Shown here in pieces: positions 5,080 to 63,585 of a DNA stretch of 64,000 nt. Positions within the stretch are counted from its first letter, which is position 1; each line of letters begins with the position of its first letter. The stretch comes from Candidatus Multivoradales bacterium. GTDB taxonomy: Bacteria > Acidobacteriota > Thermoanaerobaculia > Multivoradales > J023. Where the stretch lies: NCBI GenBank assembly GCA_965248925.1, contig CBDFLE010000005.1:2293354-2357353 (forward strand), given 5' to 3'. Made by a program: the position numbers and the translations under genes. The notes under the pieces are model-generated. The model was given only the letters and a program-made list of their open reading frames with translations. It ran no database searches and was not told the origin of the DNA.

Positions 5080-5095
5080 AACCGAGAGGAATGCA

Positions 5096-21900: not shown

Positions 21901-24892
21901 CCTGCTGCACTACACCTTGGTGTTGCGCAATCTCGGCGCTGGCGCCGCCACCGGCTTGCTGTTGAGCGATCCGATTCCGGCCCACACCAATGTCGTACCC
22001 GGCTCGGTCCTCAGCAGCCTGGGCACAGTGCTCAACGAACAGCCTCTAGAAGTGGCAATCAACGAGCTAGCCGCCGGAACGGTAGCGACGGTGAGCTTCT
22101 CCGTGCGCATCGATCAGCCCTTGGCCAGGGGGGTTGAAGAGATCGTCAATCAAAGTACCTTGACCGCCGACGACCAGCCCATTCTGCTGAGCGACGACCC
22201 GACCCTCGCCGGCAGCGCCGATCCGACAGTCATCGCGGTGCTCACCGGCACTCCCAGACTGCTGCCCCGCAAGACCGCCCTACTCTTCGACGACCGCGAC
22301 GGCGATGGCCTGCTGTCGCCCGGCGATGGCTTGCTCTATCTGATCGAGGTTGGCAATCGGGGCGATGGTCTGGCCACCGGGCTGCGGCTCGAAGACTCCC
22401 TGCCTCCAGGTACCAGCCTAGAAGCCGGCTCGGTGCAGACTTCCCAGGGCACAGTGCTCAGCGAGCAGCCGTTGATCATCGACCTCGGCCAGTTGGGCAG
22501 CGGTGCCGAAGCCACCGTGACCTTGGTGCTGCGTATCGCCGAGCCCTTCCCCGCCGATCAACTGGCGGTGGTCAACCAGGCACGGATCACTAGCGCCGAG
22601 CTGCCTCTCTTGCTGACCGACGATCCGACCACCAGCGCGGTCGACGATGCCACCGTCCGCGAGGTGTTCATCACTCCGACGGTGTCTCTCAGCGACAGCT
22701 CAGTCTCCGAGAACAGTGGCCCGGCCAGCTTCGACCTACTGCTGTCGACCCCGCCCAATCGGCCCCTGTCAGTCGCCTGGCAGACCGCCGATGGCACGGC
22801 CAGCGCGGGCAACGACTACTTGGCCACCAACGGCAGCAGCGAGCTAGCCGCTGGCGAGACTGCCGCGGTGGTGGAAATCGAAATCGTCGACGACCAGCTC
22901 AACGAGCACGACGAGACCTTCCTACTTCAGTTGACGGCGGCCACCGGTGCAGTGATCGGCGATGGCGCAGGGCAAGCGACCATCACCGACCAGGATCCAC
23001 CACCGGCCATCACCCTCGGCGACGCCAGCACCTTGGAGGGTGATGCTGGAGCCACTCCGGTGGGACTCAAATTGCTGCTGTCGAACGCCAGCGGCCTCGA
23101 CATCGCGGTCGACTACACCACTGTCGACGGCAGCGCCATCGGCGGCGAGGACTACCGTAGGAAGAGCAGCAGCCTAGCGATCGCCGCGGGCGAGACCAGC
23201 GCCACCCTCGAGGTCGAAGTGCTCGGCGACCTCAAGGATGAGCTCGACGAGAGCTTCGCGGTGCTAGTCACCTCGGCTTCGGGAGCCACCGTGGCCGACC
23301 CCAGCGGCACCATCGAGGTGATCGACGACGACCAGACCCGCCTATCGGTCCTCGACCGCACCGTCACAGAAGGTGACGAGGGTAGCCGCGAAGCGGCCTT
23401 CGAGGTGCGCCTCAGCCACGAGAGCGACCGTCCGGTGAGCGTCGACTACCAAACCCGCGAGGACACCGCGCGAACCGGCGAGGATTTCCTGGCGACCCAA
23501 GACACCCTGCTGCTGGAGGCCGGCCGCATGCGAGCCGAGATCGCAGTGCCCGTGCTGGGCGACGAGATCTTCGAGCCCTTGGAGGAGACCTTCCACCTCG
23601 ATCTGACCCATCCCATCGGCGCCGAGCTGGCCACCGCCAGCGCGCTAGGTACGATCCTCGACGACGAGCTCTGCGCCGGCCCCGAGCTGCTGCGCAATCC
23701 GGGGGCCGAGCTGCCCCTGCTAGGGAGCGATCTGCCCAACGAACAGGCACAGCTGGCGGTGTGGGTCCAGGTCGCTGGTGAGCATTGGTACCGGCGTGAG
23801 CAAGATCCGCTGGCGGCCGAGGGTGCCGCTTATTTCGCCGCTGGCCAGGCCGAGACAGCCGAACTGTCCCAGGTGGTCGACCTTAGCGGTTACAGCGAAG
23901 TGATCGCCCGCGGCGAGTTGCTGCTGGCCTTCTCCGGCCACCTGCGGACCGCCGAGGAACAGCCCTCGGACACCGCGCGGGTGGTAGTAGAGTACTTCGA
24001 GGAGGATGGGAATTTGCTGCTCGATAGCTTCGACAGCGGCGAGATCGTCAGTCCCTCAGAATGGCTGCGGGTAGAGGATCTACGCTTGGTGCCGGTCGGC
24101 ACCGACCGAGTGCGGGTGCGACTGCTCAGCAACCGCCTGGAGGGCGACACCAGCGATGGCTACTTCGACGCCCTTTCCCTGCGGGTCATCCGCCAACCGG
24201 TGGTCGAGATCGACGACCTACGGATCGCCGAAGGCCACAGTGCCAGCGCGGTCGGCGAGCTGTCCGTCCGGCTGAGCTGCGCGATCGATCGTCCGCTGAG
24301 CATCACTTGGGAAACCGTCGATGGCACAGCGACGAGCGGCGTCGACTACATCGAAGCCCGCGGCGCCCTGGAGCTGGCCAGTGGTACCGTCGGGGGTGTG
24401 ATCGAGGTAGAGATTCTTGGCGATACGGAGCACGAGCTGCACGAGGACTTCTTCGTCGAGCTGCGGGAGATCGAGCCCGCTGGGCTGGCGATAGCGCCCC
24501 AGCCGCGGGGCCGGGTGAGCATCCTCAACGATGATTTCTGCGCTCGCTCGCCAGGCTATTGGCAGCACCACAGCGACCTCTGGCCATTGTCGGAGTTGGC
24601 GTTGGGCGACCAGCAGATCGATCAGAGCGGCACTCTGGCGCTGCTGCAATATGGCGGCTCGGACGCCGCCAGCAAGCTCGCTCGCCAGTTGATTACCACT
24701 GAGTTGAATCTGGCCGTGGGCTCCGATCCGCTAGACATCTTGGCAACCGTCGAAGCCGCCCATGCCTTCCTTGCAGACTGGCCGCCAGGCAGCCGCCCCA
24801 GAGGCCCAGACCGAGCCGAGGCCAACCGGCTAAAAGACATCCTCGACGCCTACAACAATCCCGGCTGCACGCCGGTTGCGGTGCTCCCATGA
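6953..24892 (+). CDS. Giant secreted multidomain surface/scaffold protein (5979 aa)
   Basis: Signal peptide (..ASPVAA). HELMH zinc motif at 7487-7501. Five QxxxGxW/F repeats at ~8100-8850. CARDB repeats (DPDNLVAEADELNN) at ~8860-10575 and ~19970-20320. FlgD-Ig-type SPxGDG units at ~10600, 14480 and 15090. Propellers with WSPDG at ~10940-12180 and ~18980-19830. Fn3 repeats at ~16270-18790. DUF11 at ~20990-22670. Calx-beta at ~22680-23660 and ~24200-24535. ELLRNPGAE lectin/FBA-like domain at ~23680-24190. Domain bounds approximate. Confidence 0.9.
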   Translation: MKTCRRSSLALILGLPLLLALLWIGASPVAADSLWLSTDPLATKDPAAAPKADHVTFRQDHGVVAVLEVEGNYDLRIDGVLNSELRAAVGQEFLAHHPDIYDFLVVFTSFEVDLGPQVLGNHLGLRNSVAGIGLPLFDNSSLFGSNSRLQGYIDMRSVTQNPTQPLAAEFESTLTVLSHELMHQWCCYVDFELANGSISDSLRAANGHWSYLLASDASVMYGGEWQDQGDGTFSNLRRQRAYGPLDRYLAGWLSTEEVPAALLIDNPAIDPATPPPAPGTLLSGIASAIEIAAVVAAEGPRLPATDQAQRDFRIAFLLLLRPGEAVANRDLAGLERVAAEIATRFTVLSGGQALADSGPLADSEGTIGTPGGTFGGDPRPAQDLDLAAALTWLRGRQQPAGYWQDTAGTRVRDTVIALRTLNALDPTFTGAPQALVWLAQQEQPSTDSVARLAAALSLAGQDVSNLREQLAGRQNAGGGWGIEANAASDPLDTALALVVLGGALAEDPAVGFLEASQRTDGGWGHVAAGPSRTTTTTTVLRALQAADRQGAALDAALSFLGGRQNGNDGGFGDSPSTVHDTAQVISTLSRLEALEHIDSAAAKDFLAGRQTDDGSWDGSVYATALAVDSLRRFEVPDWNFAQGLSAQPASPRDGQRVQLEVSVRNASSAAAPAATLRFYNHPPEQGGIVIGDEVPIPALLLGQSATLGTTWDTFDQAGPRRLVAVIDPDNLVAEADELNNRSQLDLTVEPPPAGIDLEIDASEVIAMPAHPTRLPTAVEIAAVVRNFGSSDAANVVLRLFLGEPEFGQLLDQIVLPQVAARNSSSGLLTFQLSDPGSFELWVEAAPEGDVEPSNNRALVRVETAPALDLEILASDLQVSADPAVLGSDVTFTVLAHNRGTVDSVSFALALSVSDGTEVRQLPTLSTQLAAGQTVELEIHWRVDLTGALTFTAAADPDGLLPENDRDNNQASLAFTASALTEPNLSVASLDLSFDPEPALAGAPLQLSILLRNTGGTALSNVAVAFWDGHPQQGGSRITETTVAALAAGDQALVSASWMVSGDQDRLIYATADPDDAVAEIDESDNLAFRPLSVLGLPDLVLSDAALSLTPPFPTPGETALLSARISNLGERPAGPFAVRALRLDAAGNEVLIGEQSLSIAAFDEDSVSFSLTLPADDQPGLLRIIADVLDEVVEGHEDNNQASLAFAVQGSDFFVSERYFSPDGDGLQDSTRLFFRLPAAADVDLVVRNLEGAAIRRFEHVLANGASSGETLWDGRDDQGRLAIDGDYRLTIESHPEGETLGEVLGTALVSLDTNHSSSRLALGSEFARFTRFTCELYEAQRFELSDDERWLYFQALDDTFQPGLYRARPSGPGVPQEVLRGRLTDFAVSANASRLAFSPDLAFGDFEDVFLAAGDGSSASLARPASRVLAFDYLDRLLLLHRAGNDHLEALPRGGGLPIELASWPATEDWRYALSRDRQSLAILLDGSEMRLFDLLSGTTATLTIPGASDPFTLPRDGGDHAVMRWSPDGSLLAIADEDGEQLHLLDQGGTLLHSVPLAAADYPAALQDLDEFSPQDYANANLRAVRPIEWNSRGDQLAVLLIFSGNGIDFFAVMTVDASTGSAAAAAWSAAVETAPVMSPVILGKALGEPSELLPFESGQIPSRIEWWHPDEQLLLYGPQGIELRPGLPLDRVFEDFDDFSPLAFLPSGRGLIFSTVDGIDDPGCFGDDVPDLWSFFSLLNLWVELTVEASEQLGTFQLSGTAADLHLANWRLEWRRTTELEEVWRPIAAPSSTAVVDQPLAQWIAPGPGLYEVRLLVTDLAGNQRQVRRMVANADTPSIANVRLEPAVFSTTGGSTLANHTEVIYDVLLPVNLRFDIFDVSGTFVTTLLRDHPTAGSGFRQLWNGTDSLGRPVPDGGYIIRVAGLELAVEIDSATPRIEHGATLRTERRIEGSCGDLLPIQDLQPLRLFDFFEPNLDTTSFEHGAGATPAIWQPVGSDLIDCFASQTSDLRCQISVPSLTAATSYRATATDLAGNRSVVVSPPRVQTALLIERIDPPAAGRDRRLGGRLQPFFPPSLPGDLLLHQAQLLRLLVAESTAAALNSISIQYRPINAAAPWLSQTVASSAPLDGRFEVIWDATLALRGVELEVRLRGLASDGSELLSNSFPLLLDPVESRGRLRPADLEPTAPHGELLSTLLTEAALDLDHQSVLWAVVKSDDPTLRLSASISSLDDPAFASSQALAVAISAQGIYLLVPRQPLDDDSTYLLSFRLSRPLSCPDGGLPFSLDSSLGSALSVEIDSRFEATDCDPADASLEISMVPRGGALVSLRLEQRLGDELSTVFSIQQPEDGETYRFTPSLSLPLEQAVTFIAAVQDGSGIPAYAQLELPGQPALPLLDLTQPGASQRLCGGAEIPLAGSIDSELLFAYRLQLSRDGESFSTFHEVTQATSLDSLLAIYGDADEEPSLAAGPASWRLQVVDIGGNVVCAEVATEIVELQAMPLIALDNPLISPNGDGLLDQLTVTYDSADPATLSLAIRDPAGNLVRQLASSVAIQGSGALSWDGHDASNQLVADGVYTVAANFGGLCGDLQSLLLAVEVDTTAPEVAIAFPRPGDPLDTLIEIFGSAIDRNFSQFTVERSATGSAVWSLIDSATTPRQDGLLAVWNSFGLQGAHSLRLSASDRAGNRASTQVDLFFDQRLELISDLSAVPRLLSPNGDGQLDASSIVFGLSAAARIDLQIVNSDGAVQLDLLSAVERGAGTHPARWTGELAGGILADDGDYRLRLTAAPLDQPLALQVEDLVLSVDASPPTLALSQPGAGSVVRGTAAITGSVTDPHLLAYRVELASGDAGPWSVLATGSVERLDYDFAHLANVTEGGYFLRLAAEDSAANGSSLPVAFTVDNTPPEVSWQLPENGAVLSGVNGPQNLLGSLVELNLVQYRIEFGAGSNPASWLPIAFGTEVSGSTVSTPWDIAAVADGPYILRLLAEDGAGWISEARRSIEIDNSPPMVALTAPGDGDFITEPTAILGTATDAHLLDYRLAVAAAGSQAFTEVFVGQQAVMTGLLANWAALPPDGPHTLRLSATDLAGQQASVEIEVEIDLTPPPPVVLSGELQQSRDAHLSWTSSAAADLAGYEIQRDGVEISGSPTQTTQLVDAALTTGSYFYTVRAIDHAGLRSPASNEVELTVDIDPPLAVLLRPADGQRVRGLVEVLGSAHSALDFAEYRLSIAEGDLSTGEGSWQLLRRSPVPVLAGDLGQWQAPTLSDATYTLRLEAEDLVGNVADVRLLLTVDNAPPATPTGLAANANGDDVTTSWDANIEPDLAGYLLYRDGQPLGDGSDTGDFGNLLIEPSGNPLELYLDTDVADAEHIYTVVAIDLAGNLSPPSAPAHVVVETGPPRAILVSPEDGREFDQTLFLAAIAEDGDIAQVQFQQRATGAAIWTDLSIDLTPPWEATWDPGILPFGGYQLRALATDFGARGDANPPSLSVTYRDLTAPAAVDGLTLVAVDGGQVELSWNANTSDPDLAGYRVFRAVSSESPTALNSNPISATTYTDNGLADSRYDYTVRAVDDQGNVSLASNSVDALIYTPTLDPLLSPTPESSLDATGTTPVAGASIEAVLVGPAGSQTLAAVLADAAGVFVLPAVSLQAGDQTLTVRSRSGVVLSKPASQGVISAPPPAAPSGLAAVVTGQQVELSWNANSEPDLLGYHLLRDDLRLTEPALTNPDYNESLADGTYGYRVQAVNIHGFESPLSALLEVEVGDGLAPEPVVLSGQAEGSDVVLTWSASASGDVARYRVFRDGLEIGSHADLGDLSYRDQQLANATYVYQVAAVDVGSNVSELSNQVAVTVAIAPLAAPEILAVSPLAEGGVLAVTWQAAPASNPATFELRRATLSGGPYATLQQTPLTSHQDLDLTSGLEYFYIVVAFDSLGNPSPPSAEASGIPGALGPLAPPVFSEPGSAAQPHLTDQLVITVGGRTESGAVVTVLHDGTEIGQASTTEQSQAVPGPGAELSFNPSADGRWAIVYNPFGVGLYDFNSDSETAILGLDPPLSFFADSSAAVFANRGAISRYSLSDGSVELLATIDSASFAVPSPDGQRLAVIGTQQGLTGLWIYDLDSANWTLLIEGFGFDLPQWSPDGVWLAYPRFSQVNIIQVASAAAQVVDPGFSSSLPSWSPDSQTLAYSLSGNQDEDLWLFHLATGSREPLLEGPRDQIEPRFSADGSAVGYIDTDRETEIDGSLFRLDLASGNSEELFHIGPDADGYFNFSITRFWSWTPADALFVDADLTLYRIASGSRFTLLGVEVEPGDNLFTAVAADDLGRISQPAEPMLVTVVIADRPDLEITASDLHLVPAVGRIGEPLRLSVTVHNRGDQAAAPSELALLQLGEDGSSDPLGSPLTVAAIAAGASSTVLVDLGPFAAAGSFEIRAEVDPQGLLPEISEANNQASTNFQVLAGSAPRLTVTTDRATYGAATEVAIRSSVIQGGEPWSGELLVSIEDRQGFLVQALGSTAIEELEIGVELLLDNQWNSANTFAGTYQVHGQLIDSSGQLVAEDLAEFELDEDLELATEVITDQPHYTLGETVQLTGGLTYLNGNAALTGATATLLIKSPAGAVLQQWTEPLGVLLPGASSQLVRNWPSSGNPGLHTARFEIHRAETLLSASETTFELLAEEPLFAELNATKTVELTFDGDGDGFADPGDRLRYRITLSNSGTGPATAVLLEDPIPAHTELVAGSVSGAGTLLSSDPLRVDFGQIAAGASGEINFEVTVDNPLPGGVEEIVNQGTVSADGLESLPTDDPTTPEPLDATRLPVRAAAELVVSKIDILQLDADGNGAASAGDTLRWEIHIENHGNANADQVVLRDFAPQHTSIVVGSATTTGGQIDSEDPLRVSLGALPAGGSATVSFAAMIDSQLTDEVREVLNQATVSSTSLPVVLSDDPDLGGDADPTLTPLEHAPRLVAEKTVSLDAADSDGRAGPGDLLHYTLVLRNLGAGAATGLLLSDPIPAHTNVVPGSVLSSLGTVLNEQPLEVAINELAAGTVATVSFSVRIDQPLARGVEEIVNQSTLTADDQPILLSDDPTLAGSADPTVIAVLTGTPRLLPRKTALLFDDRDGDGLLSPGDGLLYLIEVGNRGDGLATGLRLEDSLPPGTSLEAGSVQTSQGTVLSEQPLIIDLGQLGSGAEATVTLVLRIAEPFPADQLAVVNQARITSAELPLLLTDDPTTSAVDDATVREVFITPTVSLSDSSVSENSGPASFDLLLSTPPNRPLSVAWQTADGTASAGNDYLATNGSSELAAGETAAVVEIEIVDDQLNEHDETFLLQLTAATGAVIGDGAGQATITDQDPPPAITLGDASTLEGDAGATPVGLKLLLSNASGLDIAVDYTTVDGSAIGGEDYRRKSSSLAIAAGETSATLEVEVLGDLKDELDESFAVLVTSASGATVADPSGTIEVIDDDQTRLSVLDRTVTEGDEGSREAAFEVRLSHESDRPVSVDYQTREDTARTGEDFLATQDTLLLEAGRMRAEIAVPVLGDEIFEPLEETFHLDLTHPIGAELATASALGTILDDELCAGPELLRNPGAELPLLGSDLPNEQAQLAVWVQVAGEHWYRREQDPLAAEGAAYFAAGQAETAELSQVVDLSGYSEVIARGELLLAFSGHLRTAEEQPSDTARVVVEYFEEDGNLLLDSFDSGEIVSPSEWLRVEDLRLVPVGTDRVRVRLLSNRLEGDTSDGYFDALSLRVIRQPVVEIDDLRIAEGHSASAVGELSVRLSCAIDRPLSITWETVDGTATSGVDYIEARGALELASGTVGGVIEVEILGDTEHELHEDFFVELREIEPAGLAIAPQPRGRVSILNDDFCARSPGYWQHHSDLWPLSELALGDQQIDQSGTLALLQYGGSDAASKLARQLITTELNLAVGSDPLDILATVEAAHAFLADWPPGSRPRGPDRAEANRLKDILDAYNNPGCTPVAVLP

Positions 24893-35547: not shown

Positions 35548-35789
35548 GGGGCAAGCAAGAGGTTAGGACCGTGCGCGAGCTGAGCGGCGAGATCTGGGCC
35601 GAGGTTCAAAGCAGATTCAGCAACGAAGAAATCGATTGGCGTGTTCAGGGCCGCCTCGCCGATGTTGTGATGGGTATCTTGGCCCGCCACGCGGGTAAGG
35701 TCATCGAAAATGATCGGGACCTTCCAGTCTTGCCACTTCCAAAGTTGGATTTTGGCGCGACCTGCGAGGATGAGGAGCAGGCTGAATAG
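35544..35789 (+). CDS. Putative immunity protein for toxin 1
   Basis: Small ORF whose GTG overlaps the toxin stop (GTGA); acidic C-terminus. Call is positional. Confidence 0.7.
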   Translation: MRGKQEVRTVRELSGEIWAEVQSRFSNEEIDWRVQGRLADVVMGILARHAGKVIENDRDLPVLPLPKLDFGATCEDEEQAE

Positions 35790-35839
35790 GTGTCAACCGA
35801 ATCTATTCTCACCTAGAACAAGCAGCTTGCTTTGAACAC

Positions 35840-35861
35840 AGCCCGGCGATCGCCGGGCTTT
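35840..35861. terminator. Perfect 20-bp palindrome, probable terminator between convergent genes
   Basis: AGCCCGGCGA|TCGCCGGGCT (35840-35859) followed by TT, lying between immunity-1 (+) and the HTH gene (-). Confidence 0.6.
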
Positions 35862-35877
35862 CGTGATTCAGGAACTA

Positions 35878-36213
35878 CTAGCCAGAGGCCAGCCGCTTGG
35901 CCTGATGCTGGAGGATGAGCCCATCGAGGACTGTCTTGGCGACCTTCCTGGCGTCGGGATCAAACTGGGCCAGGGCCTCGAACTGAAGCAGCAGATCATC
36001 GCTGGGTCCTCTTTCCTCGGCATCGAAGAGCAACGCATCTGCACTCACGCTGAGAGCGACTGAGAGTTTCCGAATCGCGTCGAGTCCAGGCTGGGAAGAA
36101 CCTCCCTCGTAGCGGCGCACCTGCACAACGTGGAGCCCGACAGTGTCAGCAAGCGCCTGCTGGGTAAGGCCCCGTTGCTTTCGTAGTGTGCTCAGCCGTT
36201 GTGCGAATTCCAT
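35878..36213 (-). CDS. XRE-family HTH transcriptional regulator (RstR-like)
   Basis: MEFAQRLSTLRKQRGLTQQALADTVGLHVVQVRRYEGGSSQPGLDAIRKLSVALSVSADALLF..GPSDDLLLQFEA. ATG 36213 is preferred over the track start 36267. Confidence 0.9.
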   Translation of the reverse strand: MEFAQRLSTLRKQRGLTQQALADTVGLHVVQVRRYEGGSSQPGLDAIRKLSVALSVSADALLFDAEERGPSDDLLLQFEALAQFDPDARKVAKTVLDGLILQHQAKRLASG

Positions 36214-36446
36214 CTCAAGGTGTCCCGTCCGCCGCGTCCACAAGCATATTTGTGGCTGAAGGGTCACTTTATTGGTCGCCTGCCCTTGCTGGTGGCCAGC
36301 GCCGTACTGACAATTCTCAACTCACTCAGAGAACCTCCTCGACGGATCTCGATTTCCTCTGGTTGCCCAGAATCCTTGTGTCCCGGACGCAGCTCACCAT
36401 GGACAGCGTGCTGCGGTCTGCCCTTCCTTCGCCGTCCCGAGCCGCT

Positions 36447-37276: not shown

Positions 37277-37515
37277 TGCCCGAGGATATCGACCTCGCCC
37301 GGCTCAACGCGAAGCGGCGCGCTGGTCCTCTGATGAGCTGCGAGCGGATCGCTCCCTCACCGGTCACCGCCAGAAGACCAGGGGCTCGGATCGTACAGAG
37401 CTAGCTCGAAATCCATCTCTGCCACCCTCGCCTCGACCCTACGTCTGGCTTTGGCCCCTACGGTCCTGGCGGCGATCTCGTTGGCCAGCCGCTCGCCTTT
37501 GCCGAGTACCGATGG

Positions 37516-49063: not shown

Positions 49064-49125
49064 TCTCGCCGCAGCGCTGAGAGAGTTGAGAGTATCGTAG
49101 GGCGCTACACTCTTCGAATGTCATT

Positions 49126-49154
49126 TTCAAGAAATCGCTAAGTGAAACTATATT
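49126..49154 (+). promoter_or_regulatory. Candidate sigma70 promoter upstream of unit 3
   Basis: TTCAAG-17 bp-TATATT in an AT-rich intergenic stretch, ~60 nt before ATG 49213. Confidence 0.25.
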
Positions 49155-49212
49155 TGCCAATCGAAATAATAGGTGCCTGAATGGCTGCGTCGATTTTCCT
49201 TTCCAGACTGCT

Positions 49213-52200: not shown

Positions 52201-52470
52201 CAGAGCGGCACTCTGGCGCTGCTGCAATATGGCGGCTCGGACGCCGCCAGCAAGCTCGCTCGCCAGTTGATTACCACTGAGTTGAATCTGGCCGTGGGCT
52301 CCGATCCGCTAGACATCTTGGCAACCGTCGAAGCCGCCCATGCCTTCCTTGCAGACTGGCCGCCAGGCAGCCGCCCCAGAGGCCCAGACCGAGCCGAGGC
52401 CAACCGGCTAAAAGACATCCTCGACGCCTACAACAATCCCGGCTGCACGCCGGTTGCGGTGCTCCCATGA
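49213..52470 (+). pseudogene. 5'-truncated copy of the giant gene (last ~1065 aa: DUF11, Calx-beta, FBA-like, C-terminal domain) with a new 19-aa N-terminus
   Basis: Matches 21691-24892 from 49269 (offset 27578). The frame is open, there is no signal peptide, and the ATGA overlap with rhs copy 3 is retained. May still be translated. Confidence 0.85.
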
Positions 52471-55400: not shown

Positions 55401-58400
55401 GCGGTGGCCAGCTCCAGACTCGGCAATCTGGTGCTGCGCCAGCCGATTTCCTCGGTCGCCTTCCCCCAGGATCCGGCGGCTCTGCGCCGCACCAACCGCG
55501 ACGACAGCCAGGGCACCGACCTCACCGTGCTGCACGGCCTGTGGCAAGACACCCTGGCGATCGCCGTCGAGGATCCGCACGGCAACCCGGTGGCCAACCA
55601 AGACGTGGCTTTCACCAACACCGTCTTCGTCGCCCCTGGCATCACCTGCACCAACGCTCCGCCGGACCCCACCCCAGGTGCCTTCTTCGACGCCTCAATC
55701 GACTCGATCACCGGTGGCTTCACCGGCTGCCCGGTCACTACGCCCCGTTTCGGCGATTGCGGCAGCTCCGATTTGACCCTGAGAACGACCTCCTCGGGTC
55801 AGGTCTCGGCCGGTTTCATCGCCGGCCCCAGCGCCATTACCAGCTACCCGGCAACCGTCAGTTCAGCCGCCTTGCCACCGCTGTCTTACGAGTACAGCAT
55901 TTCCTTCATCAACAACACGGGCCTCAACCACGACCACTGCGGGCCGCTGGCACAGCGCTTCGTGCGCACTTTCGGGTTCTTCGCCGACGCCGCCGGCCAG
56001 CCCAGCTCGGCAGTGCGAGCCGGCCAGGTCTACGACCCACCGGTCGGAGTCGAGGCCCTCGAATGGGTGCCCGAGTGCCAGGGGATAGGGATCGCCGACC
56101 CCAGCCCGGGGGGACCGCTGTTCTTCCTGGTCTGCAACGAGCTACGAGGCGAGTGGCGACCCGCCTATTTCTACCAGGACGGCAGCCATCCGCTGGCGGT
56201 TGAACTGCTGCCCGCCGGCACCACCACGCCGCCACAGATCGACAACCTCCTCGGCCGCCTCGAGAGCCGGCTGCAAGCCGGCCTCGACCCAGCCTTGCAC
56301 ACTGCTCGGGTGTCGCTACCAGTGCTGCCCAAGAGTCCCTACCTCGACGACTTCAATGGCGAAGTCACTGTGCTCGAAACCCCCGAGGACTACCTCGCCG
56401 TCGGCCTGCTCGACATTGCCCTCGGACTGATCGCCAACATCGACCAAGAAATCGGCAGTCTGTGGGGGGTGCAAGCTCAGATCACCAGCTTCGAGCCGCC
56501 TATCGTGCCCCTCGACGACGACGGCCTCGCAGCTGAGCCGGTAGCGGTGAGCTACCAGATCGCGCCGGCCGAGTATCAGCCCACTAGTGCTTTCGTCGAG
56601 CTGCTGCGCGACGGCCAACAGGTCGACCTCTTGCGCGGCCAGAGCATCGCTGGAGAAGGTCTCGCCGAGCTGCCCCGCGGCCTTGAGCTGGGCCTCGACG
56701 GTCTGTGGCAGGCCGAGCTGGTGCTCAATCTCGACACTCCGATCGAAGTACGCGGCGACCCCGTGCCGGTGCCCCTAGAGCAGCAGCTCTTCGCCGACTA
56801 CAGCCGCGCCTTGGCGGTGCGCCAGGATGTCGACCTGCTCAACCAGCGACGCTGCGCCCAGCCGACCCTCTTCAGCTTTGAGCTCAACCGCCCGGCCGAG
56901 GTCACCCTGATCGCCCGCCGGATCGAGAGCGTCGAGACCGACGGCAGCCTCAACACCGCCGCCGCCATCACCCTGATCGAAGCCGAGATGTTTGCCGACG
57001 GCGAGCACGGCGAGCCGATCAGCCCCACCGACCTGCCCCCCGGCGACTACCTGATCGAGCTGCGCGGCATCGACGCGGTGGATGGCTACGAGGAGGTCCG
57101 CGAGGTCCGGCTGAGTTCCGATTGGGACATCTCCGAAATACTGCCCATCGGCCATACCTTGGTCCACGGTGTCGACCTTTTCGATGGCCACCTCACCATC
57201 AGTAGAACCGATCTCGAAATCCCCGGCCGCGGCATCGGCCTGGCGCTGCGGCGCACCTATTCGAGCCTGGCGGTGTCGAGCGGCGGCCCCTTCGGCCTGG
57301 GCTGGAACCATCGCTACCAGTCGCGAGTCGTGATCACCCCCTGCGGCGAGGCCATCTTGATCGGCGGCGAGGGCTCGGGCCTGCGTTTCGTCGACGATGG
57401 CCAGGGCGGACTACGCCCGCTGCGCGGCTCTCACGGCACCCTGCGGGCCGACCCGGCTGACGGCGGCTTCGACTTCTTCACCACCTCCGGCAACCGCTTC
57501 CACTATCTCTTCTCGGAAGACAGCACCTGGCATTTGGCCTGGACCGAAGACCCCAACGGCAACCGCACCACCCTCACCTACATCGCCGGCGCCGATGGCC
57601 CCCTGCTGCGTCAAGTCACCGACTCCAGCGGCCGAGCCCTGGTCTTCGACTACCGCCAGGCTAGCTTCGCCGCCTGGGACGGGCCAGTGATCGAGCACAT
57701 CACCGGCCCTGGCGGCCTGGCGATGAGCTTCGATTACGACCGTTTCGGTAACCTGATCACCGCCCAGCGCGACAACCAGAGTCGCATCGAGCGCTACACC
57801 TACCAGACCCAGCCCAACGCCGGCCTGGAGCTGCGGCCGGTGATGACCTCGACGACCAATGGCCTCTCAGGCGCCAGCACCCAGTACACCTGGCAGAGCG
57901 GTGCCGTGGCCATCGAAGCCGGGCTGGCGATCGATGCTCTGCTGGTGGACTCGATCACCCACCCCGAGGGCGGCGTCACCACCTTCGACTTCGATCAACA
58001 GCTGCTCGGCAACGCCGCCACGCTAGAGCTAGAGACCACCGTCACCGATCGCCGCCAGCGGGCCACCACTTACCGCCTCAACCGCTACGGCAGCCCGGTG
58101 GTGATCGCCGACCCCCTCGGCCACACCACCCGCAAGACCTGGACCCCCGACGACGTGCTGATGCTCAGCCGCACCGACCAGAACGGGGTCGTCACCAGCT
58201 TCGAGTACGACCGGCACGGCAACCGGACCACCGAGCGCGTCGAGGTCACCGACGAGACCGGCACCCTGGTCACCCGCGAGCGCCTGAGCACTTACTTTCC
58301 GCCCTCAGCCTTTATCGCAGAAGGCATCAAAGACCACCTCAAGAGCCACACCGACGGCCGTGGCCACACCACCCAATTTGAGTACGACGCCCAGGGCAAT

Positions 58401-61400
58401 CTGACCCGCCAACACATCACCGTCATCGATGCCGAGGGCGCCGCCTCCACCGTCGAGAGCCGCCACACCTACTACTCAAACGGCGACCGCCGCACCACCA
58501 CCGATGCTCGCGGCCACGCCAGCACCTTCACTTGGGACACTTTCGGCAACCCGGCCACCGTGCGCGACCGCGAAAACGGCCTGACCACCTTCGCCTTCGA
58601 TTCACGAGGCCGCCAGCTCAGTCAGACCGACCCCAACAGCCACACCACCCGGCTGGCCTACGACGACCTAGACCGCCTGATCCTGCGCACCCTCGCCGAC
58701 GGCAGCGTAGAGCAGATCCAGCACGACGACATCGCCCGCACCCGCACCCAGATCGATCCCCGTGGCCACGCCACCCGGACCAGCTTCGATCTAGAAGGCC
58801 GGCCCATCGAGATCGTCAACGCCGAGGGCGGTCAGCAGCAGATGGAGTACGACCCAGAAGGCAACCTAACGCTAGAGAGCACCGTCTTCGACGCCACCAC
58901 CCTCCGCCACAACACCCTGCTGGTTTACGACGACGCCGGCCGCCTGATCCGTCGCGAAGAGCCCGAGGGCCGCACCACAGACCGAGAACTAGACCCAGCC
59001 GGCAACGTCCTGCGCCAGACCCTCGCCGACCGCGGCGACCCGAGCTTCACCCCCCGCGTCACCGAGACCGACTACGACCGGCTCAACCGCCCCATCGAGA
59101 CCCGACGCCTGCTCGACGCCGGCTTCATCGCCGGCCAGATCGCCTTCGATCTGGAAAACAACCCCGTCCACAGCACCGACCCTCTCGGCCGAGTGACGAC
59201 GATCACATTCGACGCCCTCGACCGCGAGATCGAGCGCACCGAGCCCGAGTGGAAAGCCGGCACCCCGAGAGTCAGTCAACGTTTCTGGGACGGCAACGGC
59301 AACCTGATCAAGACGGTGCTTTTCAACGAGCCCGAAAACCAGATCCGCGAGACCACCTACGATCGCCTCAACCGCCCGATCCGCCAGCTCGACGCCACCG
59401 GCGAGCTGCGGACGATGGAATACGACCCGGCAGGAAATCTGACTGTCAAGATCGACCGCCGCGGCCACCGCACCGAGCACCAATACGACGAACGCAACCG
59501 CCGCATCAAAACCACCGTCAAGCTCGCCGCTGGCAACGCCATCACCGAATTCACCTTCGATCCCTCAAGCAACCTGATCGAGCGGCTCCAGCCCAACCAG
59601 AACCGCATCACCCACACCTACGACCCGCTCAATCGCCGTCTCACAAGCGACGATCGCGAAGGCCAGCTCAGCCAGACCGGCTACGACGCTCGCGGCGTCC
59701 CCATCCGCCAAGAAGACGCCAACGGCAATGTCACCCTCAGCCAGTTCGACGGCCTCGGCCGCATGATCCGCCAGGATCAGCCCGAAGACCGCACCGTCCT
59801 ACAAACCTACGATGTAGCCGGCAACCGCCTAGCCACCACTAACCCCCGCGGCCACGCCACCACCGCCCGCTTCGACACCCTCAACCGTCAGATCGAAGAA
59901 CTCTCGCCAGCCCCCTTCAACTACCTGCGCCAGATGACCTGGGACGACGCCGGCAACCTGCTCTCAGAAACCGACCGCCGAGGCAACACCACCGAATTCA
60001 CCTACGACGACCTCGACCGCCGGATCACCCGGCTAGAACCACCCGTCCTGAGCGACGGCTCCGAGGTCCGCTACCTCACCACTTGGGCCCAGGACACCGC
60101 CGGCAACCAGCTCACCGAGGTCGACCCCCGAGGCATCCTCACCGAGAACCGCTGGGACGCCGAGAACCGCCGCACCCACACCCTGCGCGCCAATCTGCTC
60201 ATCGAGCAGGTTGAGTTTGATGCCGCCGGCAACCGAACGAAAATCTGGGATGCCAACCGCAACCTAGCCCAATTCGACTATGACGAACGCCAGCTCATCA
60301 TCACCGAGCGCCGCCCCCTCGGCGCCACCACCACCTTCACCCGCGACAGTATGGGCGACGTAATCCGCCGCCAAGACCCAGCCGGCAGATTCACCGATTC
60401 CACCTTCGACTTCCGCAGGCGCAAGCTCACCAGCACCCGCTTTGGCGAAGGAAATCGCCCCGAAACCACCACTTCCTCTTACGATTCCCAGGGCAACCGC
60501 ATCGGCAAGCTGCGCCCCGAGGGCAACGCCTGGACTTACAGCTTCGACGGTGCCCACCGCCTCACCGAAGTCGAAGACCCCGACGGCGATCTCACCACCT
60601 ACGAACTCGACCAAAACGGCAACCTCATCACCCAGATCGACGCCGCCAGCCAACCCACCACCTACACTTGGGACGAGCTAGACCGCCGCACCTCCATCAC
60701 CCAGGCCGACGGCGCCACCGAGACCTTTACGTTCGACGAAAACGGCAACCTCGCCCAACACCGAGACGCCAAAAACCAACTCTTCACCCGCACCCACGAC
60801 TCGCTGAATAGGGAAATCGTCCTTCAGTACCCCGAAGACCCCTCCACCGACGACGACCTCGAGCAGATCACCACCACCTGGGACGCCAACGGCAACCACC
60901 TCCAAACCGCCGAACACTTCACGCAAACGGGGGAACTCACCACCACCCAGACCTGGGACGATTTTGATCGCCTAGCCACCCGAACCGACCGCTGGGACAA
61001 CACCCTCATTCACGGCTACGATCTCAACGGCAACCGCACCCTGCTCATTGACCCGGCGGGCATCCCAACCACCACCACCTTCGACGCCCTCAACCGAGTC
61101 GACACCGTCACCACCCCCGGCGGAGTCACCGACTATCAGTACCTCGCCAACAGCCTGCTCAGCCAGATCGACTATCCCAACGGCACCACCAGCACCTGGC
61201 AATACGATCCCGCCAACCGCATCAGGGACCTCGACCATCGCCAGAACACCGCCCTGATCTCCAGCTTCCAATACCAGTACGACCACAACGGCAACCGCAC
61301 TGAGCAGATCGAGACCCACACCAGCCAGCCAGCCGAAACCACCATCTACGCTTTCGATCCAGTAGACCGCCTCGCCACCGTCGCCTACCCCGAGAAAACC

Positions 61401-62165
61401 GTCACCACCACCTACGATGCTGTAGGCAATCGCATCTCAGAATCGGCCGTCGACAACGGCGCCACGACGATCACCGTCCGCCTCTACGCCTACGACAATC
61501 GCCACCGATTAGTAACTGTCACCGACCAACTCGACGCCGCCCAAGCCGTCACCTACACCCACGATGCCAACGGCAATCAGTCAACCCGAACAAGAGACAG
61601 CCAGCTAACCCAGCTGACCTACGACACTCGCGATCAGCTCACCCAGGTCATCGAAGCCAGCGTCATCCAAGGCACCTACGCATTCGACGCCACCGGCCTC
61701 AGAGTCCAAAAGCTAACTGCTGAAGGTGAAGCGAGATACGTCTACGATCAGCAAAGCGTCCTGACTCGAGAAGACAGCGACGGAATCACCAAATTCAACT
61801 ACGGCCCAGATCGCTTGCTCTCCGTCGATGACCCCGTAGAAGGCCGCGCCTACTACCTTCACGACACGCTGGGCAGCGTCGTCGGGCTGATGACCCCCGG
61901 CGGCAGCTTGCTCGGTCGCTACAAATTCGACGCCTGGGGCAACAAGAGAGCCTCCGTCGAAACCGCCGCCAACCCCTTCGGCTTCACCGGCCACGAGCAC
62001 GACGACGAAACCGGGCTGATCTATGCCAAAGCGCGGTTCTATGATCCGGAATTGGGGCTGTTTCTCAGCAGCGACCCGGTCGAAGGCGAGCTGCAGAACC
62101 CGCCGAGTCTGCATCGGTATCTGTATGCCTTCCAGAATCCAACCGTGTTTGTAGATCCCGATGGA
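49269..62165 (+). repeat. Direct repeat unit 3, homologous to 21691-34587
   Basis: Sequence from CGATTCGCAGCTGACCGACGAAG is colinear with copy 1 at offset 27578 through DPDG. Confidence 0.97.
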
Positions 62166-63161
62166 AGGCTGGCGGTCCTGACGAACGCGGCCGAGAAGCT
62201 CGCTGAGATCCGTAGGCAAAACATCAGCGGCGAAGCCGATCAAGGGATCTCCGGCAAGCTCCTCGGCAACGAGCTCAGTAGAGCCATCAACGCGGCCTTC
62301 TTCGGCCTGCTCGAAGGTGGAGTCCGCACCGGCAACCTCATCGCCAACAATGTCGTCACAGAGACCCTGTCGGACGAAAGCACCCTGCGCCAGGAAGCCG
62401 ACGAAGAGCTCGGCCGGTTGGCCCTCGGGCTTGAGGGCCTTGCTCAAAGCATTCGCGAAGACCCCCTAGGCACCACTCGCCAGGTCATTGAATTCCCCAG
62501 CCACCTGGCTCGCTCATCCCTCGACACCCTCCTCGACGGAACCGCCGACCAGAGGGTCGAGCTGACCGCCAACGTCGTCGAGATTCCTCTCGGAGCCGCC
62601 GCAGGGGTCGGAGTCAACAGTGCTTTGCGCAGGAGTCTCGGCACGGCGGTCGAGAGGCGGGTGATCCAGAGGCGGGTGCGAGAAGCTGTCGCGGCTAGCC
62701 GAGAAGGCAGAGCGGCTTCGAGATTTGCCGAGCACACTGCTAGAGTTCGAGGTGTGTTTGAAGCGGCGCCTGATGGCGCCAACGCAAGGGGGCTACCAAG
62801 CAACGCCAACTTCGCTCAGAAGACATTCAGCAGCTCGTTCAGTGAAGAAGGTCGAGTTGTCCTTAGTCGAATTGCGGGGCGCCGGATTGAGACAGTCGGC
62901 GATCTGGCAGGCGCAATTCGCTCGGGATCAGTGAACCCGGCGGATATACCTGTGAACGTAATTGTACGTGACGGCAATACTCTGATTCTGAATACCCGAT
63001 CTGTACAAGCCTTGGAACAGGCCGGCTTTCCCAGGAGTTCCTTCAATGTCATCGATAAGACAGGTGATCCGTTCTTTGAGGGTTTGTTGAGCGGCCAGCT
63101 CAGAAGGAACAGACTAACAAGCCAAGGTGTATCGACAGTCCGGCCAAGTGGAAGTAACTGA
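52467..63161 (+). CDS. rhs: Rhs polymorphic toxin copy 3 (putative ParB/Srx-fold C-terminal toxin)
   Basis: Near-identical to copy 1 up to PTVFVDPDG (ends 62165). The 331-aa extension ends in NFAQKTFS..DIPVNVIVRDGNTLILNTRS..AL. Confidence 0.95.
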   Translation: MNCPTTRPRFARSFRRWLTSAGILLLASAVLATEPPAETSRTALETRILDQLARGRSIEGPLASWRSTRPVSTEESPTKTAPTSLNEALVELRQALPSKAKSRLDTSALTAAWESFQAWDLLQGDRFERTAARLDAAGLSGEPRARLERVRGDWQEFHDRLKTLLAEPLASLRTAQRTEQPALNVAAKAAAELLDTYPATLDRPMLRATSLPYRQLRLPARLPVTEPAIVPSYLDLADPGSTPTDLEPSSAAPLADEILLQAEELGYDYVAIYEFVRHQIATEWYAGSMKGALGTLRQGAGNDVDQASLLIALYRASGAAARYVGGVIELPLPWLNTQLGLDDGTAVADYLARAGIAHRPVIRGGRIAAFDVEHTWVSAHVPYSNYRGSVVDFSGRSWIPLTPALEPVERQPSTEVLASMGFAANDFVTEMLSAAQLETPLSLLRQRVEQYLLDTDGGTYAEQLGSVTSTGQPLGLLPNGFYHPVLAVTFEDSELPASARHRLRLITRGETTAGSPAILDHQLDLHQALGRRLTLSYAPATSDDHLIINLWGGLAEVPPFLVRLRPQLYIDGRRIAVGEPVDAAKLHRFEAVVEGPFGSQEISQIVLSGAYHAIAVGGQHFQATELADNDPGDGEQLAARLLSGLAYSYGADWDAAETEIGGLLAVSPARPLPALVIASNSLRAELLLGVPQRLIWEGVTLDAALRVAEPAARDGSTETAADWMRLAALEGSALEQAIFEGQFQVAAISADRGLALARDSGIEVLRLDAGNLTAELPSLNHPQTVRDDVVALIAQGLTVEIPRQPISVSAWTGSTWRAEDPESGTAGYFLSGGLAGGATVEAPENWLLGFLADALAAPMSDSPNTDPLAGVELLVAEGTDSQLGTVDRVYRHPLAVRVLDAAGRPVQGTEVTFYIWAGDGRLLDTQNQESTSLTLRSDARGMARVKLRSGKHTAANPLFLRRFDSDIFQTRVLENVVEAVASSRLGNLVLRQPISSVAFPQDPAALRRTNRDDSQGTDLTVLHGLWQDTLAIAVEDPHGNPVANQDVAFTNTVFVAPGITCTNAPPDPTPGAFFDASIDSITGGFTGCPVTTPRFGDCGSSDLTLRTTSSGQVSAGFIAGPSAITSYPATVSSAALPPLSYEYSISFINNTGLNHDHCGPLAQRFVRTFGFFADAAGQPSSAVRAGQVYDPPVGVEALEWVPECQGIGIADPSPGGPLFFLVCNELRGEWRPAYFYQDGSHPLAVELLPAGTTTPPQIDNLLGRLESRLQAGLDPALHTARVSLPVLPKSPYLDDFNGEVTVLETPEDYLAVGLLDIALGLIANIDQEIGSLWGVQAQITSFEPPIVPLDDDGLAAEPVAVSYQIAPAEYQPTSAFVELLRDGQQVDLLRGQSIAGEGLAELPRGLELGLDGLWQAELVLNLDTPIEVRGDPVPVPLEQQLFADYSRALAVRQDVDLLNQRRCAQPTLFSFELNRPAEVTLIARRIESVETDGSLNTAAAITLIEAEMFADGEHGEPISPTDLPPGDYLIELRGIDAVDGYEEVREVRLSSDWDISEILPIGHTLVHGVDLFDGHLTISRTDLEIPGRGIGLALRRTYSSLAVSSGGPFGLGWNHRYQSRVVITPCGEAILIGGEGSGLRFVDDGQGGLRPLRGSHGTLRADPADGGFDFFTTSGNRFHYLFSEDSTWHLAWTEDPNGNRTTLTYIAGADGPLLRQVTDSSGRALVFDYRQASFAAWDGPVIEHITGPGGLAMSFDYDRFGNLITAQRDNQSRIERYTYQTQPNAGLELRPVMTSTTNGLSGASTQYTWQSGAVAIEAGLAIDALLVDSITHPEGGVTTFDFDQQLLGNAATLELETTVTDRRQRATTYRLNRYGSPVVIADPLGHTTRKTWTPDDVLMLSRTDQNGVVTSFEYDRHGNRTTERVEVTDETGTLVTRERLSTYFPPSAFIAEGIKDHLKSHTDGRGHTTQFEYDAQGNLTRQHITVIDAEGAASTVESRHTYYSNGDRRTTTDARGHASTFTWDTFGNPATVRDRENGLTTFAFDSRGRQLSQTDPNSHTTRLAYDDLDRLILRTLADGSVEQIQHDDIARTRTQIDPRGHATRTSFDLEGRPIEIVNAEGGQQQMEYDPEGNLTLESTVFDATTLRHNTLLVYDDAGRLIRREEPEGRTTDRELDPAGNVLRQTLADRGDPSFTPRVTETDYDRLNRPIETRRLLDAGFIAGQIAFDLENNPVHSTDPLGRVTTITFDALDREIERTEPEWKAGTPRVSQRFWDGNGNLIKTVLFNEPENQIRETTYDRLNRPIRQLDATGELRTMEYDPAGNLTVKIDRRGHRTEHQYDERNRRIKTTVKLAAGNAITEFTFDPSSNLIERLQPNQNRITHTYDPLNRRLTSDDREGQLSQTGYDARGVPIRQEDANGNVTLSQFDGLGRMIRQDQPEDRTVLQTYDVAGNRLATTNPRGHATTARFDTLNRQIEELSPAPFNYLRQMTWDDAGNLLSETDRRGNTTEFTYDDLDRRITRLEPPVLSDGSEVRYLTTWAQDTAGNQLTEVDPRGILTENRWDAENRRTHTLRANLLIEQVEFDAAGNRTKIWDANRNLAQFDYDERQLIITERRPLGATTTFTRDSMGDVIRRQDPAGRFTDSTFDFRRRKLTSTRFGEGNRPETTTSSYDSQGNRIGKLRPEGNAWTYSFDGAHRLTEVEDPDGDLTTYELDQNGNLITQIDAASQPTTYTWDELDRRTSITQADGATETFTFDENGNLAQHRDAKNQLFTRTHDSLNREIVLQYPEDPSTDDDLEQITTTWDANGNHLQTAEHFTQTGELTTTQTWDDFDRLATRTDRWDNTLIHGYDLNGNRTLLIDPAGIPTTTTFDALNRVDTVTTPGGVTDYQYLANSLLSQIDYPNGTTSTWQYDPANRIRDLDHRQNTALISSFQYQYDHNGNRTEQIETHTSQPAETTIYAFDPVDRLATVAYPEKTVTTTYDAVGNRISESAVDNGATTITVRLYAYDNRHRLVTVTDQLDAAQAVTYTHDANGNQSTRTRDSQLTQLTYDTRDQLTQVIEASVIQGTYAFDATGLRVQKLTAEGEARYVYDQQSVLTREDSDGITKFNYGPDRLLSVDDPVEGRAYYLHDTLGSVVGLMTPGGSLLGRYKFDAWGNKRASVETAANPFGFTGHEHDDETGLIYAKARFYDPELGLFLSSDPVEGELQNPPSLHRYLYAFQNPTVFVDPDGRLAVLTNAAEKLAEIRRQNISGEADQGISGKLLGNELSRAINAAFFGLLEGGVRTGNLIANNVVTETLSDESTLRQEADEELGRLALGLEGLAQSIREDPLGTTRQVIEFPSHLARSSLDTLLDGTADQRVELTANVVEIPLGAAAGVGVNSALRRSLGTAVERRVIQRRVREAVAASREGRAASRFAEHTARVRGVFEAAPDGANARGLPSNANFAQKTFSSSFSEEGRVVLSRIAGRRIETVGDLAGAIRSGSVNPADIPVNVIVRDGNTLILNTRSVQALEQAGFPRSSFNVIDKTGDPFFEGLLSGQLRRNRLTSQGVSTVRPSGSN

Positions 63162-63162
63162 G

Positions 63163-63585
63163 ATGTCTGAGCGGGCGGTTTTGGCGCTTCCAATCACTGA
63201 TGCGGGCTGCGGTGATATCCGAGTCGTGGCGACCAGCACAAGGCTTGACGCTGAGTACCAGTATTTCTCTGAGGCATTGAATATAGACCGGATTGGCATT
63301 ATCCGCTTCGTGGGCCTTGGGGCATACAGATTTCGTGGCGAATTGCAGAGCCTGGGCTTCGCAGAAGGGAGCTACGACTCACTAGTCGAGATCGTCGATT
63401 CTGCGTGGTGTAAGGAACTTCTGAGTATCGAGCCAAACGGCATCTGGGGGAGTGTAGCGACCAAGAAACACTTTGCCGTATTTTTCAGCAATAACGGCTA
63501 CTTGGAAGTCATCGCAGATGACTTCCAAGAGTTACTTCCGCGAGAGGGGCTTCTGGTATCTCAAAGTACGACTCACCTCGACTAA
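63163..63585 (+). CDS. Putative immunity protein for toxin 3
   Basis: ATG 63163 lies 1 nt after the toxin stop (TGA-G-ATG). 140 aa with [13 protein letters not shown] and HFAVFF..GYLEVIA. Call is positional. Confidence 0.8.

Follow-up and report, generated by a model that had tools for sequence, protein, structure and literature searches.

Why should a bacterium keep several complete copies of a 10.7-kb toxin gene, one behind the other, each ending in a different toxin? The question is raised by a stretch of 64,000 nucleotides (nt) from Candidatus Multivoradales bacterium (GenBank assembly GCA_965248925.1, contig CBDFLE010000005.1, positions 2,293,354 to 2,357,353), referred to here as the window, in which three full-length rhs genes lie in tandem. 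The genome was assembled from a metagenome, from one sample, and comprises six contigs, of which C5 carries the window. In the reading favoured here, to which we give a probability of roughly 70%, the array belongs to an amplified family of Sec-exported Rhs proteins that would have grown by duplication of whole units, changed its toxin domains (warheads) by exchange at a conserved DPDG motif and kept its copies similar by gene conversion, with all copies probably usable.

Between positions 24889 and 63585 the plus strand carries three rhs open reading frames (ORFs), head to tail and without internal stop (Table 1). An earlier note, made from the sequence alone, had described three open frames of about 3550 amino acids (aa) with a near-identical core that part at DPDG and are each followed by a different small gene, and this description is confirmed. 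Over the core of 3233 aa, protein identity is 98.1–98.9% (rhs1 and rhs2 98.21%, rhs1 and rhs3 98.89%, rhs2 and rhs3 98.08%). When the DNA of the window is compared with itself (blastn), 21685–34568 matches 49263–62146 at 99.05% over 12,887 bp, 24586–34559 matches 37672–47659 at 98.1%, and 37672–48268 matches 52164–62746 at 96.6%. The identity of rhs1 and rhs3 stops at the DPDG codons (aa 3230–3233). In rhs2 and rhs3, about 213 aa beyond DPDG are still 60% identical and form a common linker, so that only the last 115–125 aa or so differ. Over the modules formed by the C-terminal toxin region (CT) and its immunity gene, the G+C content drops from about 0.66 to 0.56–0.60, as would be expected of imported cassettes.

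Table 1. Features of the window (coordinates are those of the window, position 1 being its first nucleotide).
Feature	Coordinates	Strand	Remarks
Non-ribosomal peptide synthetase module	3–2417	-	AMP-binding, PP-binding, start of condensation domain; upstream neighbour
M28 peptidase	2632–5079	+	Upstream neighbour
Ornithine/aspartate carbamoyltransferase	5009–6028	+	Upstream neighbour
Giant secreted repeat protein	6953–24892	+	5979 aa; signal-peptide-like start; stop overlaps rhs1 start
rhs1	24889–35547	+	3552 aa; DPDG at nt 34576–34587; CT1 region 34588–35544
CT1 tip	35140–35544	+	Predicted fold of the RelE/HigB/YoeB/ParE superfamily
imm1	35544–35789	+	81 aa; GTG start overlaps rhs1 stop
XRE-type helix-turn-helix (HTH) protein	35878–36267	-	129 aa; convergent with rhs1, just past imm1; Pfam HTH_3, E 2.5e-11
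Giant-gene tail remnant	37672–37980	+	Last ~306 bp of the giant gene; in ORF 37516–37980; overlaps rhs2 start
rhs2	37977–48659	+	3560 aa; DPDG at nt 47676–47687; CT2 on type-B linker
CT2 tip	48300–48656	+	Predicted ADP-ribosyltransferase-like fold, nearest to the NAD lobe of Tpt1/KptA
imm2	48656–49063	+	135 aa; ATG overlaps rhs2 stop
Giant-gene tail copy	49263–52470	+	Last 3.2 kb of the giant gene; ORF 49213–52470, 1085 aa; overlaps rhs3 start
rhs3	52467–63161	+	3564 aa; DPDG at nt 62154–62165; CT3 on type-B linker
CT3 tip	62796–63158	+	C-terminal homologues (48) on Rhs, PAAR, HINT and LysM proteins
imm3	63163–63585	+	140 aa; ATG two bases past rhs3 stop; 152 aa if GTG at 63127 is used
KptA/Tpt1-like gene	63579–64000	+	5'-truncated; runs off the contig end; Pfam PTS_2-RNA, E 1.1e-21

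The window is the final 64 kb of C5 and its last base is the last base of that contig, so the array is cut in the window. Its continuation can be followed on contig C6, since the final 669 bp of the window are 100% identical to the reverse complement of the C6 end. The order of elements there is the remainder of the KptA/Tpt1-like gene, a pair of IS21 genes, an rve-like remnant and a 306-bp tail remnant as before rhs2, and then rhs4, which is intact (3543 aa), has its own tip and is followed by a 126-aa gene and a full KptA-like gene; a KptA/Tpt1-like gene is thus the right flank common to units 3 and 4. Beyond unit 4 lies an internal rhs fragment (C6:5199526–5201330) that covers aa 772–1392, is 99.7% identical to rhs2, has neither start nor CT, and is the scar of a deleted or rearranged fifth unit. 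Two further intact paralogues, of 3572 and 3552 aa, stand in tandem at C5:1.235–1.258 Mb (rhs5 and rhs6). The genome therefore holds six intact paralogues of this family and one fragment, the latter internal, and a blastn search for short core-end fragments found no orphan CT module of the family in the window or elsewhere in the genome. The idea of the earlier note that one scaffold gene serves three complete warheads has to be given up, as every warhead has a full scaffold of its own, three of them within the window and six in the whole genome. Only the intact gene of a 5979-aa partner protein upstream of rhs1 is present once, and a better wording is one partner gene with several complete scaffold–warhead genes.

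What kind of protein is amplified here? Judged by eye, the Rhs N-terminus consists of a basic n-region, a hydrophobic stretch (LTSAGILLLASAVLA) and then TEPP, and it looks like a Sec signal peptide. Pfam recognizes a transglutaminase-like domain (Transglut_core, E 5.7e-8, aa 255–381), a weak Big_1 match, a DUF6531 plug (aa 1568–1641) and RHS repeats (PF05593, E 1.9e-101) in 11 stretches; the RHS shell measures about 1650 aa. The stretch of aa 241–420 contains no cysteine in any of the six copies, so the transglutaminase-like domain cannot be a thiol enzyme, and a sequence search of the PDB with this region found nothing. The core end, RFYDPELGLFLNSDP ... NPTVYTDPDG, aligns with solved Rhs shells as far as the DPxG in which they terminate (8h8a, with ...DPTG at its end; E 1.6e-34), and its DPDG motif is found in all six copies. 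By its sequence, this is an aspartyl autoprotease motif (...YDPxxGxF...DPDG), with cleavage predicted. The C-terminal region of about 320 aa is made of a linker, which is of two types, and a tip of about 100–130 aa; the six paralogues carry six different tips.

Homologues of about 3500 aa with the same domains exist, and the best are 44–49% identical over the N-terminal part; those with a named source are from Thermoanaerobaculia/Acidobacteriota metagenome bins, Delftia, Lampropedia and myxobacteria. This part has a match in 17 of 40 relatives, the well-assembled ones of which show one gene; most are fragmented bins, where repeats would collapse. At E<=0.01 Pfam reports no PAAR or VgrG domain in the Rhs protein, and PF05943 (TssC, the sheath protein of type VI secretion systems, T6SS) has no match in the genome, which is 96.9% complete, with a positive result for the E. 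coli control. These proteins are therefore not T6SS effectors of the usual type. From their predicted features, the genes are classed as polymorphic toxins with a signal peptide for Sec export, an inactive transglutaminase-like domain, DUF6531 and an RHS shell, and the array is a large amplified member of a known toxin class, not a new type of system.

The six CT regions have no significant family in Pfam or NCBIfam, sequence searches of the PDB with the three tips of the window gave chance-level matches only, and the genome has a single copy of every tip and of every immunity gene. Structural prediction is informative for two of the three tips. CT1 gives an AF2 model with a pLDDT of 82.6, whose top Foldseek matches in the PDB are HigB, RelE, YafQ, YoeB and ParE (best E 3.9e-4, probability up to 1.0); the model shows two helices and an antiparallel sheet, as in the RelE/ParE superfamily. 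Other Rhs and HINT proteins carry 24 homologues of this tip at their C-termini, and the modelled fold makes it probably an RNase. The CT2 model has a pLDDT of 91.8 and a weak best Foldseek match (Tpt1, E 0.16). In an exhaustive structural alignment (VIA-align) it is closest to Tpt1 (Z 7.6 and 6.7), followed by the Rhs toxin TreX (5.9) and pertussis S1 (5.5), and nearly all of the top 50 matches are ADP-ribosyltransferase (ART) folds, yet every Z is below 8; within this limit we read CT2 as a small ART-fold toxin. Its residues H82, S30 and R32 are invariant and are candidate motif residues of the putative ART. At E<=1e-3 the CT2 family takes in 165 representative clusters, for the most part with the domain at the C-terminal end of the protein, and BLASTP detects no similarity between the CT2 tip and the neighbouring KptA-like protein. 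For CT3, sequence searches of Pfam, NCBIfam and the PDB gave no match, and a profile of its homologues matched the PDB only through Rhs core residues that the homologues carry. An Atlas search placed it nearest to unnamed clusters (0.94–0.95), the named ones lying below 0.9 (MafB 0.88, ParBc_2 0.81, ParB_N 0.77) and serving as leads only. By BLASTP, CT3 and the tip of rhs4 (CT4) have no similarity, and the same holds for imm3 and imm4.

The small genes behind the toxins have no significant family in Pfam or NCBIfam either (imm1–imm4), and their assignment comes from conserved adjacency. Among 30 metagenome loci with a CT1-like tip, a same-strand homologue of imm1 (39–60% identical) lies directly 3' of the toxin in 16. 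Directly 3' of a CT2-like domain, an imm2 homologue (27% identical over 140 aa, E 6e-8) is found at one of three genome loci (L014), and an imm3 homologue (31% identical, E 4e-9) follows the sole other CT3-like domain among 250 genomes of the order (L048). These comparisons support imm1–imm3 as candidate cognate immunity genes, and the pairing of tip and downstream gene, which the earlier note had seen in each copy of the window, recurs in other organisms (16/30, 1/3 and 1/1 loci). The product of the small gene immediately 3' of each toxin would neutralize that tip inside the producing cell. The XRE-HTH gene was considered as a HigA-like immunity gene for the HigB-like CT1 and was rejected, since such a gene is near the toxin in one of the 30 loci and the 81-aa gene in 16; the one locus (L024) has a 33%-identical XRE-HTH gene in matching position and orientation. 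When the CT3 tip and imm3 were modelled as a complex, the score was 0.47, with a control at 0.36, which decides neither way. At rhs6, an IS4-like DDE transposase gene (L003 13132–14286, minus strand) overlaps the last 36 bases of the toxin gene, at the expected site of the immunity gene, which may have been displaced or lost.

How the copies arose can be read at their borders. Every extra copy begins inside the giant partner gene, so whole units were duplicated. The tail of this gene that is kept before the extra copies measures 306 bp (rhs2 and rhs4), 3.2 kb (rhs3) and 1.1 kb (rhs6), and these three distances of the left junctions from the giant-gene end call for at least three duplication events. 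At position 49263 the sequence 3' of imm2 runs into the middle of the giant gene, which is what the joint of a tandem duplication should look like. In a simple history, the segment 21685–49262 would have been duplicated, which fits the 99% identity of rhs3 to rhs1, and the new rhs1-like core would then have recombined with a CT3 module; in general terms, warheads would be exchanged at the DPDG boundary after duplication of the unit. The identity among the copies is a mosaic. Between rhs5 and rhs1 there are 65–128 differences per 500 nt in nt 1–4500 and 0–3 in several later intervals; rhs6 has diverged only in nt 7500–9500; and rhs1 and rhs3 show no difference in most intervals and 33 in nt 5501–6000, where rhs3 matches rhs4. 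Such a pattern shows gene conversion, which keeps the cores alike. Recombination between the repeats, which the earlier note had foreseen, is thus borne out both by these tracts and by the internal rhs fragment beyond unit 4.

Are the copies maintained by selection? The ratio dN/dS is 0.19–0.28 in 15 of 15 pairs and 0.16–0.20 in the most diverged segments. When substitutions were placed at random in the numbers observed, the 9.7-kb core stayed open in 5% of trials with 108 changes and in 0.55% with 181. All copies thus appear to be under purifying selection, and because of this they are probably all usable weapons and not a silent store. Recombination that deletes a unit would also remove its immunity gene, and siblings would kill such deletion segregants, which may stabilize the array.

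The giant partner gene is itself part of the pattern. Its product carries CARDB, FlgD_ig, Big_13, fn3, PD40, DUF11 and Calx-beta domains (Pfam). In five of five relatives with long flanks, a collinear giant homologue of 5100–6600 aa (31–45% identical) lies directly 5' of the rhs homologue, and matches to the giant-gene tail occur in four of nine short loci; the giant gene and rhs are, on this comparative evidence, a conserved module. Before every extra copy the upstream stop still overlaps the rhs start. Ahead of the giant gene, and overlapping its start, a 139-aa ORF (6537–6956, plus strand) has a signal-peptide-like start and no Pfam match; a weak match to it (50% over 34 aa, E 0.002) occupies the corresponding place ahead of the giant gene of one relative (L053). 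A bolder proposal, which we regard as doubtful, is that the giant protein, a surface protein of about 6000 aa with Ig, CARDB, beta-propeller and Calx-beta parts, and the translationally coupled Rhs protein of about 3500 aa form a T6SS-independent, contact-dependent delivery system of this acidobacterial lineage, in which the giant protein would be the export or docking platform for six interchangeable cocoons. One platform with six cocoons would explain why the duplicated units start inside the partner gene, and why the cocoon gene is copied and not just the warhead. Full-text searches of the literature, with subscription journals and supplements outside their scope, found no description of a tandem array of full-length rhs genes or of a pairing with a giant partner.

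Several observations weigh against an array of usable copies, and they are best judged together with the rival explanations that they would favour. The extra copies could be a reserve in full-length form. Expression would then be confined to rhs1, with its coupling to the intact giant gene and that gene's promoter, and copies 2–4 would serve as promoterless stores, complete counterparts of orphan modules, whose CT would be brought behind the expressed copy through homologous recombination or through a deletion. This is in line with the suggestion of the earlier note that recombination could swap or delete the toxin in the first position. In support, nothing but remnants of the upstream gene precedes copies 2 and 3, recombination among the copies is evident, and a promoter and terminator scan of 35400–38100 and 48500–52600, which may not cover the promoters of this organism, gave nothing above shuffle expectation, with two weak sites in the second interval. 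However, since all units are co-oriented, read-through transcription from the upstream unit is possible, and the stop overlap that is kept before every extra copy preserves the context for translational coupling. A store would need just the CT, as in classical orphans, whereas the 10.7-kb frames are open in all six copies and dN/dS is near 0.2 in every pair, even in segments with dS of 0.44–0.62. The last argument has its own limit, in that functional alleles of other strains could be the source of the differences between copies, and low dN/dS is therefore no strict proof of the present-day function of every copy. On balance, a reserve of this kind is considered unlikely. The proteins might instead target eukaryotes or serve adhesion, in the manner of Tc toxins or teneurins. 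A huge, putatively Sec-exported YD shell paired with a giant adhesin-like partner would suit such a role, as would the sequence of the shell end, which resembles a teneurin-like protein of bacteria (9pt5, E 5.8e-19) as well as an SGS protein of insects, and ART folds also occur in host-directed toxins. The conserved cognate small gene behind each tip is, on the contrary, the typical sign of a producer that protects itself from a toxin acting on bacteria, and the CT1 fold is that of bacterial mRNA interferases. Pfam, moreover, reported no TcA or TcB-type domain (SpvB, TcdB mid) in the Rhs protein or its giant partner, and no NHL domain in the Rhs protein at E<=0.01. Of the readings weighed here, a role outside interbacterial killing is the least probable.

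The remaining rival concerns the assembly, in which strains living side by side might have contributed alleles of one or two loci that were then strung together. In its favour, the DNA was assembled from a metagenome, the last base of the window is that of a contig, and contig ends fall inside Rhs arrays (the C5/C6 end overlap, and the C4 end and C5 start, which touch another such array). Reads were checked as k-mer contigs (Logan) only, from four runs (X1–X4) of the one sample. The joint at 49263 between imm2 and the giant-gene tail is crossed by a contig (47636–49298) with no mismatch in four of four runs, the junction at 37672 is crossed in X4, and CT1, imm1 and the HTH gene are covered by one contig in X1–X3. 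The copies are not alleles of one locus because their left junctions differ (the full giant gene; an insertion sequence remnant plus 306 bp; the 3.2-kb tail), and copies that are 1–3% different can be separated by long accurate reads. Read depth, which the earlier note had named as a check, speaks partly for the array. Core contigs have 3.8–8.2 times the depth of the unique CT contigs in X1–X3, which is near the assembled copy number although such depth is not itself a copy number, and the giant-tail contig (two copies) has about 1.5–3 times that depth. The units are, however, uneven in depth: CT1 (34924–36323) and CT2 (47636–49298) contigs have depths of 3.33/6.8, 15.9/9.77 and 22.9/23.3 in X1–X3 (ratios 0.49, 1.63 and 0.98), and in X4 the core/CT2 ratio is just 1.5, with a CT2 contig depth of 47 and, in the 69% of X4 that was read, no CT1 contig and no cover at 35200–35799. 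These uneven depths could be noise, the unread part of X4 or heterogeneity among strains in unit content. With k-mer contigs of one metagenome sample, the long-range order of the units rests on the assembly, especially at the rve-like repeat 36294–37121, which has a 98% twin upstream of rhs4. Even so, an artefact that created the array is thought very unlikely, and tandem duplication of complete units stays the preferred explanation.

Further repeats and genes accompany the Rhs units. A split rve-type transposase-like element of about 1.1 kb (36294–37296, minus strand; Pfam rve) shows the same split in all its copies, with an N part of aa 1–164 and a C part in another frame. There are seven copies on C4 (163–270 kb), four at the C5 start (11–62 kb), one in the window and one at the C6 end, solely beside Rhs units in this genome; the element is reminiscent of the H-rpt repeats of E. 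coli Rhs elements. KptA/Tpt1-like genes number only two in the genome and stand just 3' of imm3 and imm4 (window 63579–64000; L001 2920–3528, minus strand). The one after imm3 is without its first 25 codons or so, and its earliest possible start codon is not reached until 63657, as though its 5' end had given way to the CT3–imm3 cassette, and at the other CT3-like locus (L048) no KptA gene is found within 1.5 kb. The genome as a whole has at least 30 large YD/Rhs frames, including about 15 dispersed Rhs genes of about 1650 aa. A second tandem array lies at C4:147–250 kb, with open frames of 5075, 5085, 2503, 5010, 5114 and 1810 aa, and at C5:2–61 kb, with frames of 3330 (cut by the contig start), 5078, 2485 and 2503 aa; the C-termini of these genes are all different.

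The findings leave the accepted picture of Rhs systems unchanged, and their value lies in what the array offers for study. It is a fixed natural example of the duplication-then-recombination route to full-length rhs genes, and it shows concerted evolution of 10-kb toxin genes. The conserved pair of giant and Rhs proteins, with six near-isogenic cocoons that carry different warheads, is material for the question of Rhs delivery without a T6SS. In addition, the array supplies three toxin and three immunity families that match no Pfam or NCBIfam model, two of them with a predicted fold (RelE-like, and a minimal Tpt1-like ART).

How does the array compare with systems already described? The rhsA–E genes of E. 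coli K-12 are full-length paralogues with near-identical cores and different extensions, and recombination between them rearranges the chromosome; they are dispersed, linked to the T6SS (vgrG/PAAR), and have the transposase-like H-rpt repeat beside their units. Here, by contrast, the copies are in tandem, and the flanking repeat is of the rve type and found solely at Rhs units. To have several full-length rhs paralogues with different CT/immunity pairs is, in any case, normal Rhs biology. Tc toxins, built of TcA and a TcB–TcC cocoon, resemble the present proteins in having an RHS cocoon with an autoproteolytically released toxin beside a very large partner, and an ART-type warhead, as suggested for CT2 by its structural match, is also present in TccC3. 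They differ in the TcA, SpvB and TcB domains, which Pfam did not find here; the partner is an Ig/CARDB/Calx-beta repeat protein, and immunity genes are present. WapA of Bacillus subtilis is a Sec-exported, surface-attached YD-shell toxin with a polymorphic C-terminus and a downstream immunity gene. The bacterial teneurin-like proteins, as the available part of their description has it (PMC13018210), are defined by an FN-plug, NHL and a YD shell, and some genomes carry several of them; they share with the present proteins the YD shell with Sec export (predicted for the latter), the polymorphic C-termini and the downstream immunity genes. In comparison with WapA and the teneurin-like proteins, the proteins of the array have no NHL domain by Pfam and are 1.5–2 times larger. 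High numbers of YD genes are on record too, with 33 in a mussel symbiont according to the accessible text of that report (PMC4612132).

A close match in architecture is the class of Zhang et al. 2012 (PMC3482391), which has, in the sections of that paper at hand, a signal peptide (putative in the present proteins), a transglutaminase-like domain without the catalytic cysteine, an Ig-like region, an RHS array and a variable toxin, in the same order as here. A Tox-RelE tip on RHS/HINT scaffolds is listed there as well, so that the RelE-type tip is common to both. Those sections deal with architecture only, and contain neither tandem amplification of whole genes nor a conserved giant upstream partner (PMC3482391). 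In Pfam and NCBIfam no model fits the tips or the immunity proteins of the array. A close match in mechanism is the rhs-main and orphan system of Salmonella Typhimurium (Koskiniemi et al. 2014, PMC3967940), which has in common with the array the Rhs core, the swap of the CT at the core end and the cognate immunity genes. As far as the excerpted text of that study goes, the Salmonella orphan, being a fragment, has neither a start nor an export signal, and recombinant cells form a rare subpopulation (PMC3967940). In the array, by contrast, there are no orphans, and the full-length duplicates are fixed, 1–3% diverged and homogenized in tracts. Its genes have about 2.6 times the length of those in Salmonella, and the search for a T6SS sheath gene was negative (compare PMC3967940). 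Koskiniemi et al. propose, in the same excerpts, that the locus is duplicated and that the main gene then recombines with the orphan, yielding a second gene of full length that carries another CT, and this model predicts exactly the layout seen here (PMC3967940).

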